DNA of 33,988 nt, from the IMG/VR virus record IMGVR_UViG_3300021405_000008. The stretch is one strand, 5' to 3'. The DNA is from a virus (taxonomy: Duplodnaviria; Heunggongvirae; Uroviricota; Caudoviricetes). Positions 10,447 to 18,227 of this stretch are shown one piece after another. Below the pieces are notes generated by a model. The model made no database searches. It was not told the origin of the DNA and saw nothing but the letters and a program-made list of their open reading frames with translations. A program made the position numbers and the translations under genes. How positions within the stretch are numbered: the first letter of the stretch is position 1; each line of letters begins with the position of its first letter.

Positions 10447-11079
10447 CTATGATTCTCTTTCGAGGTAGCCTGTGTAGCTCTCTGGATCGGCGAGGTACTC
10501 CTGCATGTGCTTCTCCTGAATCCAGACCTGGTGGTCCGGGATGAAGATCAGGTCATCGTCATCGAGGAATTCCTCTGTTGTGTCTTGCTGCTCTTGTGCT
10601 TTGTTTCTCTTGTTATTTTCCTTGGTTCTGTAGTGGGCGGGCCTGGGGGCTTGTGGGTCGTTGGCGTTGTCTTGCTGGTCTCCCGGGAACTCTCGGACCC
10701 ACTCCCAGTACTGGACGCCTAGGATGCCTTTGGTTCTGTGGGGCTTTGATGTGATGCCGAGTTCCCGGCGGATGATTGAGAGGTATGATGCCTTGGCTGT
10801 TGTGCCAGGCGTGTTGATAATGAAGTCCTTGACGTACTGGGCTGGGTGAATAGTGCCCACCGTGGGGAAAAGCTCTAGCAGGATCTCTTTGGTCTTGGTT
10901 CTGATCTGGGATAGGTCCTCGTTGACTGCGAGCTTGTCCCAGTTTATCTTGGCCACAGGCATTACTACTGCATGATAGCCGTAGCGATCCTTGAGTGTTG
11001 TGATGTCGGCTTCTGCTTCTTCGACGTCACTGTAGGTCCCGTATGCTTTCCCGTCTGAGATAACAATGTAGATCGGCAT
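10447..11079 (-). CDS. putative DNA-binding protein (winged-helix-like segment), next to origin-like region
   Basis: IIRRELGITSK...WEW resembles wHTH tails of phage replication ATPases (recalled, not searched); ATG 11079 preferred because upstream ATG 11130 lies in the inverted repeat. Confidence 0.6.
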   Translation of the reverse strand: MPIYIVISDGKAYGTYSDVEEAEADITTLKDRYGYHAVVMPVAKINWDKLAVNEDLSQIRTKTKEILLELFPTVGTIHPAQYVKDFIINTPGTTAKASYLSIIRRELGITSKPHRTKGILGVQYWEWVREFPGDQQDNANDPQAPRPAHYRTKENNKRNKAQEQQDTTEEFLDDDDLIFIPDHQVWIQEKHMQEYLADPESYTGYLERES

Positions 11080-11114
11080 AGATCGAGTATACCCGATAAT
11101 ACGAGCGCTTAGAA

Positions 11115-11170
11115 CCCGCATAGAACCCATAGAACCGTTGAATTTCAGGGTTATGTGTAAGAAACTACCG
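11115..11170. repeat. left arm of 56-bp imperfect inverted repeat
   Basis: reverse complement matches 11563-11618 with 3 substitutions and 2 single-base indels; first 20 nt identical. Confidence 0.9.
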
Positions 11171-11562
11171 TATCTCCCCGCTCTACCCTCCTGTTAATTA
11201 TTATTATTGAAAATGCAGTATTTACATTTATCCTAGTAGTCTATAATATCATATTTTAGAAACGGTAGTTTCTAGGGAAGAAACGGTAGTGCCGGTAGTT
11301 TCAAACGATTTCTCCGACTGCACAGCGGTTCTAGAAATTCTAGCTACATCAGTGAATTATTGATTTTCATTGCAGTAAATACTATATTCATTACATTTGA
11401 TAATGCAGTATTTCTAGAAACGGTACCCCCGGCCTGCACACCCCTAGAAACGGTAGTCCGATTTTTCCGATTTTCTGGGTGCACAGTTATCTGCATATAT
11501 GCGTCTACCTGCGGCAATACTCTGAGTACACTGTAAAATTCAGGGGGTTTAGAAACGGTAGC
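11171..11562. other. AT-rich non-coding region with GAAACGGTA(G/C) iterons; candidate replication origin
   Basis: GAAACGGTA[GC] at 11259, 11280, 11417, 11447, 11552; CGGTAGTTTC at 11263, 11293, 11563 and inverted at 11161; visibly AT-rich versus flanks. Confidence 0.6.
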
Positions 11563-11618
11563 CGGTAGTTTCTTACACATAAGCCCTAAAATTAACGTTT
11601 CTATGGATTCTATGCGGG
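11563..11618. repeat. right arm of 56-bp imperfect inverted repeat
   Basis: see left arm 11115-11170. Confidence 0.9.
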
Positions 11619-11668
11619 ATCTATGGGTCAATATGGTAATCTATGTGGATTTTCATGTTATTACACGC

Positions 11669-11705
11669 AAAAAGGCCCTAAATCGCAGTGATTTAGGGCC
11701 TTTTT
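11669..11705. terminator. bidirectional rho-independent terminator
   Basis: AAAAAGGCCCTAAATC-GCAGT-GATTTAGGGCCTTTTT perfect 16-bp IR with A/T tails, downstream of 11736-11891. Confidence 0.9.
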
Positions 11706-11735
11706 GGCGGTATTTTGGGCTATTTCAGTGGTATT

Positions 11736-11891
11736 TCACACGTTCCGGGCGCGTAGGAACTGTATAAATCTCGCCATTTCCTGCTCTCGGAAGTGCTGCA
11801 AGCGGAAAATTGCCTTGGGACGGGTGTCGACCGGCAGTGAATTGATGTAATCCTGCTCCTCGGGCGACATATGCGGTGCGTCGATCAGCAT
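11736..11891 (-). CDS. hypothetical protein (51 aa, MLIDAPHMSPEEQDYINSLP...)
   Basis: manually translated; starts within stop region of 11885-12124; protein-like, unlike track ORF 11725-12108. Confidence 0.6.
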   Translation of the reverse strand: MLIDAPHMSPEEQDYINSLPVDTRPKAIFRLQHFREQEMARFIQFLRARNV

Positions 11892-12124
11892 AACTCGAAG
11901 CACATGCAGTCGCGGCCATCGAAGTCTGCGCCGCAGTGGCAGCCTCGGTTGCGGAGTGGGGTGTACTCGCTGGGGACACCCAGGTGAGTGTCTGGGTCAT
12001 CGCAGTCGAACGGCGCGCAGATCTTGCAGTCCATGCTGAGTTCCTGCTCGCCATCACCTGACTCCAGCAGCGCGCGGTTGTAGTTCTCTTCTGCGAAGTC
12101 GCGCTCATCGTCGTTGTTTGCCAT
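11885..12124 (-). CDS. Cys-rich small protein (79 aa)
   Basis: CAGAGGAGAAG RBS; CKIC...C, CHC...CMC...C. Confidence 0.75.
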   Translation of the reverse strand: MANNDDERDFAEENYNRALLESGDGEQELSMDCKICAPFDCDDPDTHLGVPSEYTPLRNRGCHCGADFDGRDCMCFELC

Positions 12125-12146
12125 GTCTTCTCCTCTGGGAAAGTGC

Positions 12147-12193
12147 AGCGGTACTGAGTACCGTTTTCGTTCGAATTAGGGCTCCTACCTGCG
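12147..12193 (-). promoter_or_regulatory. operator-like palindrome CGGTACT-G-AGTACCG plus bipartite promoter-like motif, copy 1
   Basis: 29 nt identical to 12973-13001, then CCTACCTGCG at same spacing. Confidence 0.75.
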
Positions 12194-12212
12194 GTAACAT
12201 GGATTCTGCAGT

Positions 12213-12281
12213 CTGAGTTGCCCGGCCGAGTTCTGCGAAAAATCGTATACGATCCGGCGCAGAACCGGCCTAGCAGATCAG
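12213..12281. repeat. intergenic hairpin, GCCCGG-core family
   Basis: begins CTGAGTTGCCCGG (identical to 14989 and 15151); GTTCTGCG/CGCAGAAC inner stem; overlaps TGA stop of 12278-12592. Confidence 0.8.
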
Positions 12282-12592
12282 CTACTCGGGTCTACGGTCA
12301 TTTCGCAGTGAAAGCCGACCGGGGCTGGCCTCCAGACGTCGATCTCTGTGTGACCGAGTTCATCGACGTGCTCGAAGATGCTCCAGTAGCGCGAGTCGTC
12401 GCCAAGATTCACATACTTGCCGTTCGCGCTGAGCTCTCCATTCCAGTTTATCCGGAGCAGAACTGCGCCGGGGCCGAGAACACGCTCGATCAGCAGCTCG
12501 GTGTGGACCTTGTCATTGTCCTCGGTGCCGGGATCGGTGCTGGTGACGGTGATTTCGATCGGCTCGGTCAGAATCCAGTCCTGGAATTCCAT
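12278..12592 (-). CDS. hypothetical protein, paralog family A
   Basis: GGAGGAGAA RBS; WILTEPIEIT...LLIERV...NGELSANG motif. Confidence 0.8.
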   Translation of the reverse strand: MEFQDWILTEPIEITVTSTDPGTEDNDKVHTELLIERVLGPGAVLLRINWNGELSANGKYVNLGDDSRYWSIFEHVDELGHTEIDVWRPAPVGFHCEMTVDPSS

Positions 12593-12610
12593 TTTCTCCT
12601 CCGGTTCTGT

Positions 12611-12652
12611 GGCCCGGGGCGGGCCGCTAGGCCAATTCTACCGCGTCCGGCC
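12611..12652. repeat. intergenic hairpin, GCCCGG-core family (weak)
   Basis: GGCCCGG/TCCGGCC with C-C mismatch; loop contains CCAATTCTACC also in loop at 13868. Confidence 0.55.
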
Positions 12653-12660
12653 GCTGAAAG

Positions 12661-12954
12661 CTAGGCCCGGTAGATGGTTGCGGCGAACTGCGCGCCGTAC
12701 TTGCTGATGATGGCATTGTGTACCAGCATCTCGTCCAGCGTCATGTCACTGGCGATGAAGCCTGCCCAGCCACCCTCGAAGTTCCTGTGGACCAGGATCA
12801 TGGCCGTGGTGTCGGCGATGTCCGCAGGCACCTCGTCTGTGCAGTCATAGATGAAGCCGCGCGCCTCGTTCATGAGATCACGCAGCATCGCGTCCGTGTC
12901 TGCGGGCTTCGGCGTGTTGAAAATCTGGCCGTGGTAGCCACGCTCGTCGTCCAT
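12661..12954 (-). CDS. hypothetical protein (97 aa)
   Basis: GGAGGAGGAG RBS. Confidence 0.8.
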   Translation of the reverse strand: MDDERGYHGQIFNTPKPADTDAMLRDLMNEARGFIYDCTDEVPADIADTTAMILVHRNFEGGWAGFIASDMTLDEMLVHNAIISKYGAQFAATIYRA

Positions 12955-12972
12955 TTCTCCTCCTCCGGGTTG

Positions 12973-13019
12973 AGCGGTACTGAGTACCGTTTTCGTTCGA
13001 AAAACGCTTCCTACCTGCG
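12973..13019 (-). promoter_or_regulatory. operator-like palindrome plus bipartite promoter-like motif, copy 2
   Basis: 29 nt identical to 12147-12175. Confidence 0.75.
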
Positions 13020-13085
13020 AGGTTACCTCTCAGGTAACTAGTTAGCTAGGTTAACGAATGGGGGCTTGCACTGCCCGGGCACTGT

Positions 13086-13105
13086 CCGCTAGATATATCT
13101 AGCGG
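13086..13105. promoter_or_regulatory. perfect 20-bp palindrome CCGCTAGATATATCTAGCGG
   Basis: read directly; intergenic. Confidence 0.6.
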
Positions 13106-13129
13106 CCAGCACCCCCGGCGGAACAGACC

Positions 13130-13564
13130 TCAGTGCGCGTCGTGATAGAGGCAGAAGCTGTCTCCTGTGCAGCCCTCGACTGCGGCGTCCGCCTGCTGAT
13201 CGGACCAGACGTCGACGCAGGATGCCAGAGTGCTGTTGGTGATGGCCTCCTCCAACGTCGCGGCCTGGTGGGGCTGGGTGTTACCAGGACCCCAGACGCT
13301 GAGCGCGCCCCGGATCTTGTCCGGTGACCAGCATTCAACGATGACGTCCCAGCCGCCACAGTCGTAGTGCCCGCTCGCGTAGCCGCGAATTTGCTCGACT
13401 AGCGGCATATTACCGAGCGCGATATCGTGCAGGATATGTCCCGGCCAGCCATCCCGGAGCTTATCTGCGCGGGCGGGCTCCAGTAGTAGGAAGATCTGGC
13501 CGCTGTAGTCGACGGGCACTTCATTGCCCTTGGCGTCTGTGAATAGGTACCAGCTCACTTGCAT
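13130..13564 (-). CDS. hypothetical protein (144 aa)
   Basis: start reassigned to ATG 13564 after CAGAGGAGAAG RBS; HYDCGGWDVIVECWS motif. Confidence 0.8.
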   Translation of the reverse strand: MQVSWYLFTDAKGNEVPVDYSGQIFLLLEPARADKLRDGWPGHILHDIALGNMPLVEQIRGYASGHYDCGGWDVIVECWSPDKIRGALSVWGPGNTQPHQAATLEEAITNSTLASCVDVWSDQQADAAVEGCTGDSFCLYHDAH

Positions 13565-13599
13565 TTTCTTCTCCTCTGTATTTTCGATCGGATACGCTC

Positions 13600-13625
13600 C
13601 GTTCGAATTAGGTCTTTGACCTGCG
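13600..13625 (-). promoter_or_regulatory. bipartite promoter-like motif, copy 3 (no operator palindrome)
   Basis: CGTTCGAA-N11-ACCTGCG, same spacing as copies 1 and 2. Confidence 0.65.
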
Positions 13626-13823
13626 CTAACATCCGCAGGTTTTGGCGATTGACCGGGCCTCGTAGCAGTCCGGGCAAACGTTCTTCCGGCTGCGCTGCGC
13701 GCCCTTATAGCCGGGCGCGAACTTCTCGTCCGCAATCCGATCGAGCACAGACGGCGGCGGGCAAGGCCGCTTTTCGTCGTCCTGCGACCTTACGATCTTG
13801 CTATACGTATCGTTTACGTACAT
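13626..13823 (-). CDS. small protein with C-terminal CxxC...CxC (65 aa)
   Basis: start reassigned to ATG 13823 after CAGGAG RBS. Confidence 0.7.
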   Translation of the reverse strand: MYVNDTYSKIVRSQDDEKRPCPPPSVLDRIADEKFAPGYKGAQRSRKNVCPDCYEARSIAKTCGC

Positions 13824-13837
13824 TTTTCGCTCCTGCG

Positions 13838-13897
13838 GACTCCGAGGCCCGGTCGGCCCCTTCAATTCCAATTCTACCCGACCGGGCTGCTGGAGTC
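13838..13897. repeat. intergenic hairpin, GCCCGG-core family
   Basis: GACTCC/GGAGTC outer and GCCCGGTCGG/CCGACCGGGC inner stems; abuts TAG of 13897-14100. Confidence 0.8.
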
Positions 13898-14100
13898 TAG
13901 CCCTTCCTTGCAATGCGGATGGTCATAAAGTCAACGTCCACGACCGAGTAGATCAGGTTGGTCTTGCGTGGCTCGTTGGCCTTGATGGTCGATTCCGGGT
14001 ACCACCCACACTCAGCAGGCCTAGTCCGGAATACGCAGCCGTCACGCCACTCTGTGATGTAGAACAGCTGCCTGTACAGTTCGTACTTCTGCTTTACCAC
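13897..14100 (-). CDS. hypothetical protein (67 aa)
   Basis: GTG 14100 after GAGGAGGAGAA RBS. Confidence 0.7.
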   Translation of the reverse strand: MVKQKYELYRQLFYITEWRDGCVFRTRPAECGWYPESTIKANEPRKTNLIYSVVDVDFMTIRIARKG

Positions 14101-14118
14101 ATTCTCCTCCTCTGTGGG

Positions 14119-14174
14119 CTGATACCGCCCGGCCAGCCTCCAGTCACACTCTGGAGACCAGCCCGGTGATTCAG
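14119..14174. repeat. intergenic hairpin, core copy 1
   Basis: about 24-bp stem, loop TCACACT; includes TGA stop of 14171-14350. Confidence 0.9.
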
Positions 14175-14350
14175 TCCTCCGGGTAGCGCGCGTCCCTCTG
14201 GTCCATGACCAGTTCGGCCTGGTTGTCGTTGAGCTGATCATATGGCTTGCCGAATAGCTCCTGTGCGATCTCGTCCATGTGGCGCTCGGCCTGCTCATCG
14301 CGCATGCGCTGGCCGTCAGCCTCATAGTCTGACCAGTCTAGGTCCCTCAC
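14171..14350 (-). CDS. hypothetical acidic protein (59 aa, MRDLDWSDYEADGQRM...)
   Basis: manually translated; GTGA overlap. Confidence 0.7.
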   Translation of the reverse strand: MRDLDWSDYEADGQRMRDEQAERHMDEIAQELFGKPYDQLNDNQAELVMDQRDARYPED

Positions 14351-14508
14351 TTCTGCTCCATCCTGATGTCGTCGTTGCGGATGAGCTCCAGCTCCTGGGC
14401 GTCCACGACTCGGACGCCCAGCTCAATGAGCTCACCCCTGTAGTGTAGGTCGGTCGGGTTGGCCAGCCAGGCCGCCCGCTGCTCGCTGAGGATCGGGTCG
14501 ATTATCAT
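14347..14508 (-). CDS. hypothetical protein (53 aa, MIIDPILSEQRAAWLANP...)
   Basis: manually translated; ATGA overlap. Confidence 0.7.
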   Translation of the reverse strand: MIIDPILSEQRAAWLANPTDLHYRGELIELGVRVVDAQELELIRNDDIRMEQK

Positions 14509-14969
14509 GACAGACCGCGCTCCAGCAGGTACATCTTCACGATGTCCGTGATGTCCCCGCCGTCCGCGTGCTCCAGCAGGAATCGTCCGATCTGCAGGAA
14601 TGCTCTGACGTCTGCGCCGTCATCCGGCTTGTTCCACGGCGGGAAGATGTATGAAGTCCCGCCGCCCACAGAGCACACGATCTGCGCGGTGCCCGTGTTG
14701 TAGAGGTAAGCCGAGGCACCCTCACGCAGCTCATGCTCGGGGTGCCCGGCCGCCTTGGCCTCGGCAGCGTTGACTGCGAACCGCCGGAGTACGTACCGCA
14801 CGCAGGTCCGGTCGTACAGCACGTCGTCGCTGTGGCGCTTGCTGAGGTCTGGCTCGATCACGTAGCGGTACACGATTGGCGTGTCAAGCATGCGCTGCCT
14901 CTTGGCCGCATGCTCCGCCTGCCGTGCCGCCCTGAGCTGAGACTCCAGCCACTCGATTGAGTTCTCCAT
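14505..14969 (-). CDS. hypothetical protein (154 aa)
   Basis: GAGGAGGAGAA RBS. Confidence 0.85.
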   Translation of the reverse strand: MENSIEWLESQLRAARQAEHAAKRQRMLDTPIVYRYVIEPDLSKRHSDDVLYDRTCVRYVLRRFAVNAAEAKAAGHPEHELREGASAYLYNTGTAQIVCSVGGGTSYIFPPWNKPDDGADVRAFLQIGRFLLEHADGGDITDIVKMYLLERGLS

Positions 14970-14988
14970 TATTCTCCTCCTCTTTGGG

Positions 14989-15043
14989 CTGAGTTGCCCG
15001 GTCGGAACACAGTCACACTCTGTGCTCCAGCCCGGTGACTCAG
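14989..15043. repeat. intergenic hairpin, core copy 2
   Basis: 24-bp stem, loop TCACACT; includes TGA stop of 15040-15132. Confidence 0.9.
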
Positions 15044-15132
15044 ATGCCGGTGTTCCGGAAGTAGCCGATGAAGAATCCGACGACCAGGACTATCACCGTG
15101 ATCGATGTTGTGTCCAGCAGCAATGTCTTCAT
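15040..15132 (-). CDS. small single-TM membrane peptide (30 aa, MKTLLLDTTSITVIVLVVGFFIGYFRNTGI)
   Basis: manually translated; GAGGAGGAGAA RBS; sits alone between two hairpins. Confidence 0.7.
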   Translation of the reverse strand: MKTLLLDTTSITVIVLVVGFFIGYFRNTGI

Positions 15133-15150
15133 TTTCTCCTCCTCTGTGGG

Positions 15151-15210
15151 CTGAGTTGCCCGGGCCAGGCAGGAGCAGTCGTGAACTCCTGCCTCGCCCC
15201 GGTGACTCAG
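15151..15210. repeat. intergenic hairpin, core copy 3
   Basis: 25-bp stem with AGGCAGGAG/CTCCTGCCT inner arms; includes TGA stop of 15207-15380. Confidence 0.9.
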
Positions 15211-15380
15211 GCGTATACTACCTGGCCATTGACGCTGGCCAGCCTGCGGGCGCTCCTGAACTCAGCGCTCGTGTCTGCGTGCTGCCCGGCTTTCCAGGCG
15301 GCCTCTGCCTCGCTGACGGCGGGCACGTCGATGGTGTGCTCGATGCCGTTGAACATGTACCGTACCTCGTACATGTCCAT
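15207..15380 (-). CDS. hypothetical protein (57 aa, MDMYEVRYMFNGIEHTIDV...)
   Basis: manually translated; starts 2 nt after upstream stop. Confidence 0.7.
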   Translation of the reverse strand: MDMYEVRYMFNGIEHTIDVPAVSEAEAAWKAGQHADTSAEFRSARRLASVNGQVVYA

Positions 15381-15382
15381 GG

Positions 15383-15568
15383 CTAGTATGTCGCCAGGTA
15401 CTCGGTGACGACGGCGCGGGCAGGCCCGCAGCCGGAGGTCAGATCGTACATGGCCTGGTCGTACATCATGTACTCAAAGCCCAGGTTGGCACCAGGCACG
15501 CACATGTAGTAGAAGTACCGCGCGGTGATGATCCGACGCGCCACCTCAAGGGCCATCTTGGTTGGCAT
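15383..15568 (-). CDS. hypothetical protein (61 aa)
   Basis: CAGAGGAGAAG RBS. Confidence 0.7.
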   Translation of the reverse strand: MPTKMALEVARRIITARYFYYMCVPGANLGFEYMMYDQAMYDLTSGCGPARAVVTEYLATY

Positions 15569-15593
15569 TTTCTTCTCCTCTGGGATACTTGGT

Positions 15594-15657
15594 TCTAGTC
15601 GAACCAGCCCGGCGGCCGAGGCGCAGCGCGCCCCGGCTTCCGAGCTTACCGACTAGA
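15594..15657. repeat. intergenic hairpin, GCCCGG-core family
   Basis: TCTAGTCG/CGACTAGA outer stem contains TAG stop of 15653-16066; AGCCCGG/CCCGGCT core with C-C mismatch. Confidence 0.75.
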
Positions 15658-16066
15658 CCCACTCGCTCCGCTGGGGGAGCGGCAGGCCCTCCACGTCCCA
15701 GCCCGTCTTGGGCGAGGCCAGGTGGTGGAGCTGGTTGGCGATGAGGTGCTCGACGTCCTCGCGCAGCTCGTCCGGGATGTCGGCGTCGGCGACGATCTTG
15801 CCGGCCGCCTCCAGGATCGCCCGGTCCAGGTCCCGCACGAACGTCCGCGCGGTGACCGGCTTCGGAGCGTTGGCGGCTGCCTCGCGCGCGGCGTCGCGCG
15901 CGGCCTTGGCGTCGGCGGAGGCCTTGGCGAGCGCGTCGCGCGCGTCGTCACGGGCCTTCTTGGCAGCCGCAGCGGCCGCCTTCTTGATCTCGACCCCGGC
16001 AGTCGCGTCCGCGTTGGTGCGGGTCTTGGGCGCGTTGACGGCGTTGAGTTCGGTGATGCTGGTCAT
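15653..16066 (-). CDS. Ala/Lys-rich protein with C-terminal domain paralogous to 9468-10340
   Basis: CAGAGGAG RBS, very high GC3; LHHL...W...GLPLPQRSEW. Confidence 0.85.
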   Translation of the reverse strand: MTSITELNAVNAPKTRTNADATAGVEIKKAAAAAAKKARDDARDALAKASADAKAARDAAREAAANAPKPVTARTFVRDLDRAILEAAGKIVADADIPDELREDVEHLIANQLHHLASPKTGWDVEGLPLPQRSEWV

Positions 16067-16688
16067 GATTCTACTCCTCTGGGATTCGGGTCGGTCCGAT
16101 ACCGCCCGGACGCGGGACCGCAGATCGGCCTACCTACCGGCCGTCCCGTCGGTCCCCATCCGCGCGCTACGCACGCCGAGGAGAGAAGAATTCTCCGCTG
16201 TTGAGTTATCAAGATGCGACTGTCCTCTCGGACTTCTCTGCCCTGCTTCTCGCGGGCGCGACCCCTACGGGGGCCCTTCCCGCGTCCGTCCGGCGGCCGC
16301 CCCGCCCCCGCACCTCCCTTCCCGCTCCGTTTCCGTCCTGCCCTTCTAGGGCAATCCTACCGGAGAAATGCGTTGAACGGAAGCATTTTCGGCCGATTTT
16401 TGGTCTCGTTTCGGTAACGGAATGCAGTTCCTCTCCGTAGCCGCACGGCTACCCTCCGCTAACCCTTACCAAACCACTCCTAGGAACTGTTCCTACCGGA
16501 ATGGTCGGGAATGTCGTCGCTCTCAGTTACCATCCGCTACCCTCCGTAGCTGGTCCAAGCGGGGTCGACCATTCCGACCGGGATAGTAGGGAATGTCGAA
16601 CGTCAGTTCGAATGGAGACGCGCGATGGACCAGTACTCAAAAAATGTTCCGCAACAGCGCTAGCGCTGTTCGAGCTTCTCTTTCATCT

Positions 16689-16780
16689 GCTAACACAGTT
16701 TTAGCTGTTTCTGAAGACTGCAGTCGTAAATCCGAAATTGCGCTAACACAGTTTTCCATGTTTTCTGGAAAGTGCAGTCA
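16689..16780. repeat. two imperfect ~38-nt direct repeats (53-nt period) in divergent intergenic region
   Basis: GCTAACACAGTTTT at 16689 and 16742, each followed by TTTCTG...TGCAGTC. Confidence 0.75.
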
Positions 16781-16782
16781 GA

Positions 16783-16992
16783 CTACCTGCGGGAGAGCCT
16801 GCATACTCCAACGATGACCACTAGGAAGAGCACCCAGCCTGCCAGGACAGGCCACCAGTAGGGACGGGGCAGGAAGAACGGCCAGCAGACGAAGAGGGCC
16901 GCTACGATGACGTTGATGTGATTGGATCGGACACTAGGGCCGACGGGACGGTTGGGACGGCCGGAGCGAACACGGCGGCGGTATCTTTGCAT
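16783..16992 (-). CDS. small membrane protein (69 aa, basic N-terminus, two TM)
   Basis: hydrophobic VIVAALFVCWPFFL and WWPVLAGWVLFLVVIVGV. Confidence 0.6.
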   Translation of the reverse strand: MQRYRRRVRSGRPNRPVGPSVRSNHINVIVAALFVCWPFFLPRPYWWPVLAGWVLFLVVIVGVCRLSRR

Positions 16993-17180
16993 ACCCGGAA
17001 GTATACTCTATGCACGGGAGAAGGGAAACCCGGGTTTACCTGCGGGGATAGTAGAAATTTGGCGATACCCTACCCAAATCCGCGATAATAGGCTATACTC
17101 AGGTCGAAGAGGCCTGGGGTCAGGCAGAGCGAAACTGGGGCCGGTAACCCCGGTGCGGCTCTCGGGAGTGCTGGAGAGAC

Positions 17181-18227
17181 ATGTCAGGCAGGGAAGCGCA
17201 AGAAGCAGGCGATGGCGGGGCGGCGCGTAGCGTAGGCGCGTCACGCTCACGCCAGTCAGCGGCTCGCACCCCTAGCACGACTAAAAGTGCTTCGGATCCA
17301 AGGGCAGCAAAGGCAAAGGCTCCGGTTAGACGCCGGGTGGCAGTGGCAAACACGGCAAAGAACGCAGATGATGCGGCGACACCCTCGTTGACACCCCCCG
17401 TCACGCGGGTAACGCCAGCCGTGCGGCGGAAGGCTGTTCATAGGTCAGCTCAGCCCGAGTCAGTCAGCTCGCCCCCGGTAACGGAGCAAGACAACGATGC
17501 TGCCCTAGATGAGTCCGAGCTGGCGGGAGAGTCCCTCAGCACCCCCGCTCTAACACACAGCAACAGCAATGAACCGGAAGACCACGTCTATGACCCCAAT
17601 AGGCACACGTCCGATGGCATGCACACTATGGACGGGAAGCCTGCAGAGCCCAAGCCAAGGCCAGTCAGCCGGAACCTAGACCCATCCCAGCTCTACCGGG
17701 GCCGGGCGCGGATGGCCCTGATCCGTGACCTCGCCATGGGTGAATGGACAAGCAGATCCATCGCTGATAGCGTTGGCGTCCCTGTCGAGATCATCGAGGA
17801 CTTCAAAGAGACATACGAGCACGAGATCTCTGAGGTTCGCGCTGCGCTAGCCGGGCAGCTCGCGATTGAGAGTGCTGGTCTCTGGATCTCCAAGCGGCAG
17901 AACCGCATCAGCGAGCTGCAGAGCGACTTCGAGGACATCGATCTGGTCATCGAGGTCATGCGGAAGAACACCAAGCAGAAGCTTGAGGAAGAGGCAATCC
18001 TCAGTGGTAGTGATAGCATGGTCAAGGGTGACGTCTTCGACACCGACCTGCTGCTGGGCTCCCGGCGTCACCAGAACCTGCTCCGTGCCAAGATCGCAGT
18101 CCTGAGGGCAGTCGCGGATGAGTACGCCCCGAACAAGCAGAAGAAGGATGCAGAGCAAGAGGACAAGAGCATCCGGTACGTCATCGAGCAGGACACAGGC
18201 GACGACATCCTGGAGTCCCTGACGTGA
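17181..18227 (+). CDS. putative terminase small subunit / HTH packaging protein with long disordered N-terminus
   Basis: first gene of virion arm; LIRDLAMGEWT-HTH-...LWISKRQNRI..LQ...VLRAVADE pattern recalled from actinophage TerS-like proteins; GGAG RBS. Confidence 0.6.
   Translation: MSGREAQEAGDGGAARSVGASRSRQSAARTPSTTKSASDPRAAKAKAPVRRRVAVANTAKNADDAATPSLTPPVTRVTPAVRRKAVHRSAQPESVSSPPVTEQDNDAALDESELAGESLSTPALTHSNSNEPEDHVYDPNRHTSDGMHTMDGKPAEPKPRPVSRNLDPSQLYRGRARMALIRDLAMGEWTSRSIADSVGVPVEIIEDFKETYEHEISEVRAALAGQLAIESAGLWISKRQNRISELQSDFEDIDLVIEVMRKNTKQKLEEEAILSGSDSMVKGDVFDTDLLLGSRRHQNLLRAKIAVLRAVADEYAPNKQKKDAEQEDKSIRYVIEQDTGDDILESLT

Follow-up and report, generated by a model that had tools for sequence, protein, structure and literature searches.

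What are the hairpins that separate the small genes of an uncultivated actinophage, and how do they come to stand between genes that differ from one relative to the next? The window that we analysed, 33,988 nucleotides from a tailed phage (Caudoviricetes), is the last 34 kb, reversed, of the 95.4-kb virus record IMGVR_UViG_3300021405_000008 in IMG/VR, which CheckV scores as 100% complete. Its genes lie on the minus strand from position 1 to about 17 kb, including the interval 11.7-16.1 kb, and carry strong ribosome-binding sites (RBS) of the GGAGG type. This interval holds an array of 13 small orphan genes (11885..16066, minus strand; 30-154 amino acids), which we call cassettes. An earlier note on this DNA had described hairpins at the stop codons of some of these genes and had likened them to integron cassette sites, phage RNA processing sites or translational-coupling elements. 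We found that these hairpins, named class A, are a well-supported RNA family that is absent from Rfam, incorporates a stop codon and occurs in a phage lineage that is rare. By analogy with the RNase III sites of phage T7, we tentatively regard them as intercistronic hairpins for mRNA processing and/or 3'-end protection, a reading to which we give somewhat less than an even chance.

The family was recognised from three core elements, all on the minus strand. Copy 1 (14119..14174; -33.4 kcal/mol, z -5.2), copy 2 (14989..15043; -30.1 kcal/mol, z -4.5) and copy 3 (15151..15210; -44.3 kcal/mol, z -7.5) each fold as a single unbranched hairpin on the mRNA strand, and none of 200 shuffled sequences folds as well. 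They score 72, 79.5 and 69 bits, respectively, with covariance model R1. The apical loop is AGUGUGA in copies 1 and 2, and the lower stem of copy 1 is slightly diverged. The arms CUGAGUCACCGGG and CCGGGCAACUCAG are common to the three hairpins, and the upper stems differ in sequence and still pair, as had been noted before; the same kind of element is also found beyond the window. The exact 13-mer of the arm occurs three times in the 95-kb genome, against no occurrence of a reversed-pattern control. Each hairpin begins one base before the TGA of the upstream gene, which in copy 3, for example, occupies bases 2-4, and abuts the block CCCA(C/A)AGAGGAGGAGAA. This conserved RBS block lies at 14101..14118 (minus strand) after copy 1, with equivalents at 14970-14988 and 15133-15150. 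The earlier description of hairpins set on the upstream TGA and followed by a near-identical RBS block is thus accurate.

Relatives of these elements were found in metagenomes. A scan for the two arms gave two 4-kb contigs (L095 and L096) with many sense-strand copies each, and homologues of one cassette protein led to more arrays (L097 and L100-L104). The wide family set comprises 31 strong covariance-model matches, 16 of them distinct in sequence, from the window and eight short metagenome contigs. The element is about 55 bases long, with a total helix of 19-22 bp, fixed internal loops and 22-36 bp between the arms. Its conserved lower stem consists of CUGAGU/ACUCAG, then CC/GG and GG/CC, and is interrupted by a 2x2 internal loop (NA opposite CA) and by a purine-purine mismatch (G.G in the core copies). 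The upper stem, of 12-13 bp, is free to covary, and a tandem U.G/G.U step is conserved. The apical loop is AGUGUGA in 11 of the 16 distinct copies, and two others have UACG or UACU tetraloops. This anatomy amends one earlier statement, that the hairpins share fixed non-canonical positions (G-T at stem position 8, C-C at 11 and, in two copies, T-G at 7). Such positions do exist on the plus strand, but that strand is antisense, and the mRNA has A.C, C.A and G.G instead; across the wider family, the partner of position 7 is not conserved.

The paired positions vary in concert. In a model-fitted alignment of the 16 distinct copies, 96.7% of the paired cells are filled by pairs, compared with 80.2% in column shuffles, a value that none of 500 shuffles reaches; the copies share descent, so that such controls overstate their independence and do not yield probabilities, although the margin is nonetheless large. 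Two-sided changes occur in 15 of the 21 pairs, and slid controls are only 27-47% paired. Alignment with MAFFT followed by RNAalifold, which is independent of the model, gave the same fold with compensatory changes in 14 of 20 pairs. One compensatory change, from C-G to U-A, separates L095 from L097 at the hairpins that come after gene family F13. The strong covariation in the 16 distinct copies supports selection on the structure of the hairpin, which had been proposed from the window alone, and a covariance model built from the copies matches the related arrays.

The fold belongs to one strand. All 31 strong matches are on the gene-sense strand, and in 15 of the 16 copies folding is stronger on this strand than on its complement (mean difference 6.6 kcal/mol), because wobble pairs, including the conserved tandem U.G and G.U, turn into mismatches on the other strand. 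This specificity argues against a site in duplex DNA and for a role in RNA, and the best-supported fit is thus a role at the level of the mRNA. When we searched positions 11000-17200 with the Rfam covariance models (E up to 1), we obtained no relevant match and no self-cleaving ribozyme (twister, hammerhead or others), so no known ribozyme is present there.

The hairpins are also in register with translation signals. Among 28 tabulated copies, 24 have a called upstream gene; the TGA stop forms bases 2-4 of the hairpin in 19 of these 24, and the stop is at bases 6-8 in two more. The start codon of the next gene usually lies 14-26 nt past the hairpin end, behind CCC and AGAGGAG. Every copy is followed by CCC and then by a purine-rich Shine-Dalgarno sequence, both of which are unpaired in the predicted folds. 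All 16 distinct 5' arms contain a stop, seven of them in two frames and two in all three frames (CUGAGUGACUAGG, CUGAGUAGCUAGG). We considered a selenocysteine-insertion hairpin, given the UGA at the base of the stem, and rejected it: the open reading frames (ORFs) end there, a second in-frame UGA is present in the loop and the frame is not extended. A separate observation concerns a mini-ORF of about 10 codons, with a good RBS and a GTG start, which follows one hairpin in three contigs (L095 2994-3048, L096 1827-1879, L097 3352-3406). Its end motif, AGGTAGGATGACATG, recurs at other junctions and looks like a signal for stop/start coupling.

The family has a narrow distribution. In the 95-kb phage, the covariance model confines it to this 3-kb array, in one orientation. 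Neither the remaining 61 kb of the genome nor 80 loci of terminase relatives (1.05 Mb) yielded a copy with model R1, whose best matches there fall inside coding sequence, and in L011, the nearest of the terminase relatives (74% identity), the array is missing altogether. Cultured phages showed no megablast match to the region, one hairpin together with its RBS returned only a chance match of 30 nt in a distant blastn, and pattern scans of IMG/VR gave chance matches or none. Scanning prokaryote genomes for a 16-mer returned at least 120 single chance matches, none of which was confirmed by the model (best 27 bits). Locus searches of IMG/VR with two window proteins, one from the array and one adjacent to it, found nothing.

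Do the genes between the hairpins move? The contigs L095 and L096 are 98.5% identical over 2.5 kb apart from one segment, whose borders coincide exactly with the last base of one hairpin (after CUCAGCCC) and the first base of the following one. This segment holds two genes plus an internal hairpin in one contig and a single unrelated gene of 113 amino acids in the other; in this replacement the gene changes while the downstream hairpin stays. Between L095 and L097, two cassettes are in swapped order, and each gene has retained its own downstream hairpin. Another gene family of L097 is lost in L095, where its RBS (GGAGAAGT) is fused, through a short microhomology (GGAGT), to sequence within the 5' arm of the following hairpin. 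Protein clustering over all arrays showed that the families recur in four lineages, variously ordered and combined, and the divergence between the same two contigs varies among cassettes (80-97% identity). Both the set of genes between the hairpins and their order therefore differ among relatives, in line with the cassette-like architecture that the earlier note had put forward; the fixed gene order that would have spoken against it is not observed. These contig alignments are, at the level of sequence comparison, direct comparative evidence of cassette exchange at the hairpins.

The junctions of these exchanges are found at either end of a hairpin or inside it, and there is no one fixed crossover point. 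This pattern fits general recombination at a repeated junction, through short homology or microhomology, and not a site-specific process, and resembles what is described for the PeSL elements of T4-type phages. Because the junction of about 70 nt (stop, hairpin, CCC and Shine-Dalgarno) is repeated between unrelated genes, it would also supply the short homology with which general recombination could replace, reorder or delete cassettes. Profile searches of the genome revealed a gene for a recombination ATPase of the AAA_24 family (Sak4-like; G000:C1:21417-22022, E 1.6e-25), the sole recombination family found among those searched; RecT, ERF, YqaJ, RNase III, tyrosine integrase (PF00589), serine resolvase and Y1 HUH (PF01797) were not found. 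The recombinase or HUH nuclease that the earlier note had proposed to look for elsewhere in the genome was thus searched for in the 95-kb record and is not among its matches. We also considered homogenisation of the hairpins by gene conversion, for which there is no clear support: hairpins placed after the same gene family in two contigs are about as conserved as the genes beside them (87-100% compared with 80-97%).

Two systems of other phages invite comparison. In T4-type phages, the PeSL (promoter-early stem-loop) elements are repeats at gene junctions. Each spans the upstream stop codon, a stem-loop, the Shine-Dalgarno and the start codon, and they cluster in a hyperplastic region whose genes are small orphans. 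The insertions, deletions and replacements that distinguish close relatives are accounted for by recombination between these repeats (PMC2839356, PMC4122927). They are built around a sigma-70 promoter, their stem-loops are terminators and mini-circles have been shown (PMC2839356, PMC4122927). The likeness lies in the differences between close relatives, which here too are bounded by repeats (L095 compared with L096 and L097), but most class A hairpins have no promoter and the promoters of our arrays are separate repeats. The SAS/ESAS of cluster K mycobacteriophages consist of a start block that follows imperfect inverted repeats in about half of the cases, with a variable spacer and in one orientation (PMC3203893). 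This is likewise an actinophage system that pairs a conserved start block with upstream inverted repeats. However, the ESAS arms are 17 bp with a spacer of 4-13 bp, they are not described as long and covarying or as anchored on stop codons, and the sequences are unrelated (PMC3203893). REP elements associated with RAYT differ as well, being dispersed in both orientations, whereas the copies studied here are in one array and one orientation and PF01797 is absent. By analogy, the class A element would work like a T7 processing site and evolve like PeSL, and by sequence it belongs to neither of these families nor to SAS/ESAS.

How could such an element work? In the explanation that we favour, class A elements would be cis-acting RNA hairpins in a polycistronic early mRNA, where they would mark the boundaries between cistrons. 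Each hairpin would be cut by a host endonuclease specific for double strands (of the RNase III type), or would block 3' exonucleases, or both. As a result, a protective hairpin would cap the 3' end of the upstream cistron directly behind its stop, while an unstructured ribosome-binding site would open the next one. Cleavage or stabilisation, and the identity of the nuclease, are what we infer here from an element that, by observation, is a helix of about two turns with fixed irregularities, placed between cistrons, after a stop and before a free RBS. A two-turn irregular helix between cistrons favours processing and/or 3'-end protection. The early mRNA of phage T7 is cut at irregular hairpins between cistrons; its sites R0.3, R0.5, R1, R1.1 and R1.3 span about two helical turns, contain internal loops and lie between early cistrons; after cleavage, the upstream message carries a hairpin at its 3' end and the downstream one has a free ribosome-binding site. 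The two types of site are alike in having an irregular helix of about 20 bp or more between cistrons, predicted at 19-22 bp in our case; hairpins that stabilise messages between cistrons are, in general, a similarly close parallel. They are unlike in that there is no sequence similarity, the hairpins described here hold a stop codon and a conserved apical loop, and the host is an actinobacterium.

Besides the shared descent of the copies, several points weigh against this explanation. RNase III is not known to have a strict consensus, so that substrates cannot be predicted from sequence, and since the phage has no RNase III gene the model depends on a host enzyme. The conserved loop and the sequence of the lower stem suggest a sequence-specific protein partner, which the RNase III and exonuclease models do not need; indeed, there is a hint here of a partner that is required by none of the models that we considered. 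The strand asymmetry could also reflect a role in single-stranded DNA, which we consider less likely, and the hairpins may promote recombination simply because they are repeated, not because this role is selected.

The registration of the hairpins with stop and start codons could also be read as translational coupling or insulation without cleavage. The hairpin would bring the stop and the next Shine-Dalgarno together and lock the upstream sequence in a local fold, such that terminating ribosomes reinitiate efficiently and each RBS behaves alike whatever gene precedes it. The stop is indeed at the base of the helix, the Shine-Dalgarno is about 9-15 nt beyond the other end and unpaired in the predicted folds, and the RBS blocks are conserved. 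Other junctions in these arrays have overlapping or near stop and start codons (gaps -4, -1, +2), so coupling is the norm in them. Yet a ribosome at the TGA must melt the lower stem, and the geometry of the bridge is then lost when it is needed, whereas the strong consensus Shine-Dalgarno sites should initiate unaided; moreover, coupling leaves the conserved internal loops and the apical loop unexplained. We consider it unlikely, though it is the main rival of the explanation that we favour. If the hairpins acted on transcription, they could be partial intrinsic terminators or attenuators without a U-tract that grade transcription down the array. They are stable, GC-rich and placed right after stop codons, and promoter-like repeats follow three hairpins of the window, as in the promoter-plus-terminator units of PeSL. 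A precedent in stable hairpins without poly-U between small early genes is the early region of phiC31, whose U-less terminators were reported by Ingham, Hunter and Smith (Ingham et al. 1995, as summarised in PMC3993855). Yet no copy is followed by a U-tract, and a terminator scan found only the array's own canonical terminator at 11668-11706. Mycobacterial RNA polymerase did not terminate in vitro without a U-tract (PMC3993855), which also counts against attenuation. Since most copies have no downstream promoter, efficient termination would silence the genes that follow and is unlikely here. Ordinary terminators, the class to which these elements might have been reassigned, are thus unlikely to account for them, and partial attenuation seems to us improbable.

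A different group of explanations places the function in DNA. The hairpins could be strand-specific recombination sites, either attC-like or of a new kind, that fold in single-stranded DNA and are cleaved by a recombinase not recognised as such. The layout of an ORF with a downstream imperfect palindrome, the conserved ends and variable centre, the strand-asymmetric fold and the promoterless cassettes are all shared with integron attC arrays, including CALINs (PMC9892861); attC arrays without an integrase can occur in phages (PMC9892861), and the two reordered cassettes keep their own hairpins. This is the likeness that had led to the attC comparison, but as a mechanism it is not supported. 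The R-box motifs (R''/R'; RYYYAAC/GTTRRRY) are present in none of the 16 copies on either strand, the mismatches are symmetric (a 2x2 loop and a 1x1) with no extrahelical bases, and the genome has no integrase and no other tyrosine, serine or Y1 HUH recombinase. Furthermore, one replacement keeps the hairpin and one microhomology deletion falls inside an arm, which leaves no single crossover point, and the tight registration with stop codons and RBS points to translation. We judge recombination sites of this kind very unlikely. Nearly as doubtful is the broader idea that the hairpins are the sites of a strand-specific cassette-mobility system, served by a host factor or by a recombinase, acting on single-stranded DNA or guided by RNA, that one of the orphan genes encodes. 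Were it true, lytic actinophages would possess an integron-like platform for gene exchange without a known integrase, in which the loop and lower stem would be the determinants of protein recognition and the built-in stops (in two or three frames in nine of the 16 copies) would terminate any captured ORF. Finally, the conserved 13-bp inverted arms and the dispersal of the copies through one transcription unit recall the stoperators of cluster A mycobacteriophages and would suit operators in double-stranded DNA that bind a dimeric regulator. Here, however, the 22-36 bp between the arms are base-paired and covary, which a DNA-binding site does not need, the G.U-type asymmetry favours one strand and the arm spacing varies, and operators strike us as barely credible.

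The array also contains hairpins that are not core elements. Four looser members had been listed in the window, and one of them stands as a true member, the class A variant at 12213..12281 (minus strand; z -7.2; 29.4 bits with model R2, E 1.6e-6). It has the lower stem of the family and a longer, unrelated upper stem, and a promoter-like repeat lies downstream in place of the RBS. The hairpin at 15594..15657 (minus strand; z -6.5), which starts on a TAG stop, is not matched by model R2 and is of another type, class B; the same gene family is also trailed by class-B-like hairpins in relatives (L095 ~296-355, L097 638-701). The hairpin at 13838..13897 (minus strand; z -3.4) is not class A either, and overlaps a conserved sigma-70-like promoter motif (TAGACT, 17 nt, TAGAAT). 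The last of the four, 12611..12652 (minus strand), shows no significant structure, folding no better than shuffles (z +0.43); its sequence may be that of a decayed hairpin of the CUAGCGGC type, which is intact in L103 and L104. A marginal family member that was not on that list lies at 13066..13126 (minus strand; z -4.3; E 0.015 with R1 and 0.012 with R2) and begins after the stop of gene 13130-13564. Strong local folds are in general about 4.5 times denser in the interval 12.2-16.3 kb than genome-wide (15 of 78 peaks in 4.3% of the sequence).

A further class of hairpins, which we call the sister class, was seen in the related arrays. It has arms GUUAGCC / GGCUAGC, followed by a small second hairpin (GGCUACAGCC) and by GUGAAUCCCAGAGGAG, and is found at L103 3032-3086 and 3685-3741, L104 3035-3091 and 3808-3864, and L102 1383-1465. 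Some of its copies also carry the AGUGUGA loop, which in L104 is borne by a different lower stem.

Promoter-like sequences form separate elements, and no promoter motif was found in or after the three core hairpins. A promoter-like repeat on the minus strand at 12147..12200 consists of GCAGGT, 8 nt and CCTAATTCGAA, then the palindrome GGTACTSAGTACC, with further copies at 12973-13026 and 13600-13632. It is conserved in L095 (3528-3601), L096, L097 (3290) and L101, often with the palindrome GGTACTSAGTACC next to it, and one copy in L097 sits within the upper part of a class A hairpin. Given its misfit to sigma-70 spacing, this repeat may be served by a phage-specific or alternative sigma factor. 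A second conserved motif is of the sigma-70 type (TAGACT, about 17 nt, TAGAAT or TAGGAT) and occurs at 13871-13899 on the minus strand of the window, and in relatives at L095 3680, L097 4340, L103 2764 and 6359, and L104 2789. The window copy lies within the 5' arm and loop of the hairpin 13838-13897, which could therefore form only on read-through transcripts.

The proteins of the array gave few leads. Searches of Pfam and PHROGs assigned no function to any cassette protein, and comparison of the two most conserved ones with the ESM Atlas gave no usable lead. One entire cassette between two class A hairpins is a strongly hydrophobic ORF of 30 codons with a perfect RBS (15040-15132, minus strand), whose product is possibly a tiny membrane protein. 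The array's first gene (15653-16066, minus strand) encodes 137 amino acids with Ala/Arg-rich repeats and has a third-position GC of 0.95, compared with 0.76-0.86 in its neighbours; in all the related contigs that include the upstream end of the array, a homologue is found there or in the adjacent position. A canonical bidirectional U-tract terminator with 17-nt perfect arms (11668..11706), identified in the terminator scan, marks the end of the array. Beyond it and adjoining the array is an AT-rich region with iterons of the GAAACGGTA type (window 11130-11700); L011 (5200-5650) has a corresponding region that bears this iteron motif too. That this region is kept in L011 although L011 is without the gene array suggests, from sequence, a conserved origin-like region. 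The window differs from the genome record in two respects: its bases 1-50 are missing from the record, and position 17393 is A in the window and G in the record.

These arrays provide an example of a standard gene junction, in which a stop, a structured RNA and the next RBS make up a unit of about 70 nt that stays constant while genes are exchanged around it. They extend from T4-type coliphages to actinophages the idea that regulatory cassettes mediate modular shuffling, and the evidence for structure is unusually strong in this case. The family is also a marker for the orphan-gene regions of this uncultivated phage lineage, and its hairpins might be of use as portable insulators for synthetic operons in actinomycetes. 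If class A hairpins are processing sites, they would represent a T7-like punctuation of the message in a high-GC Gram-positive host, where the processing of phage mRNA is poorly known.

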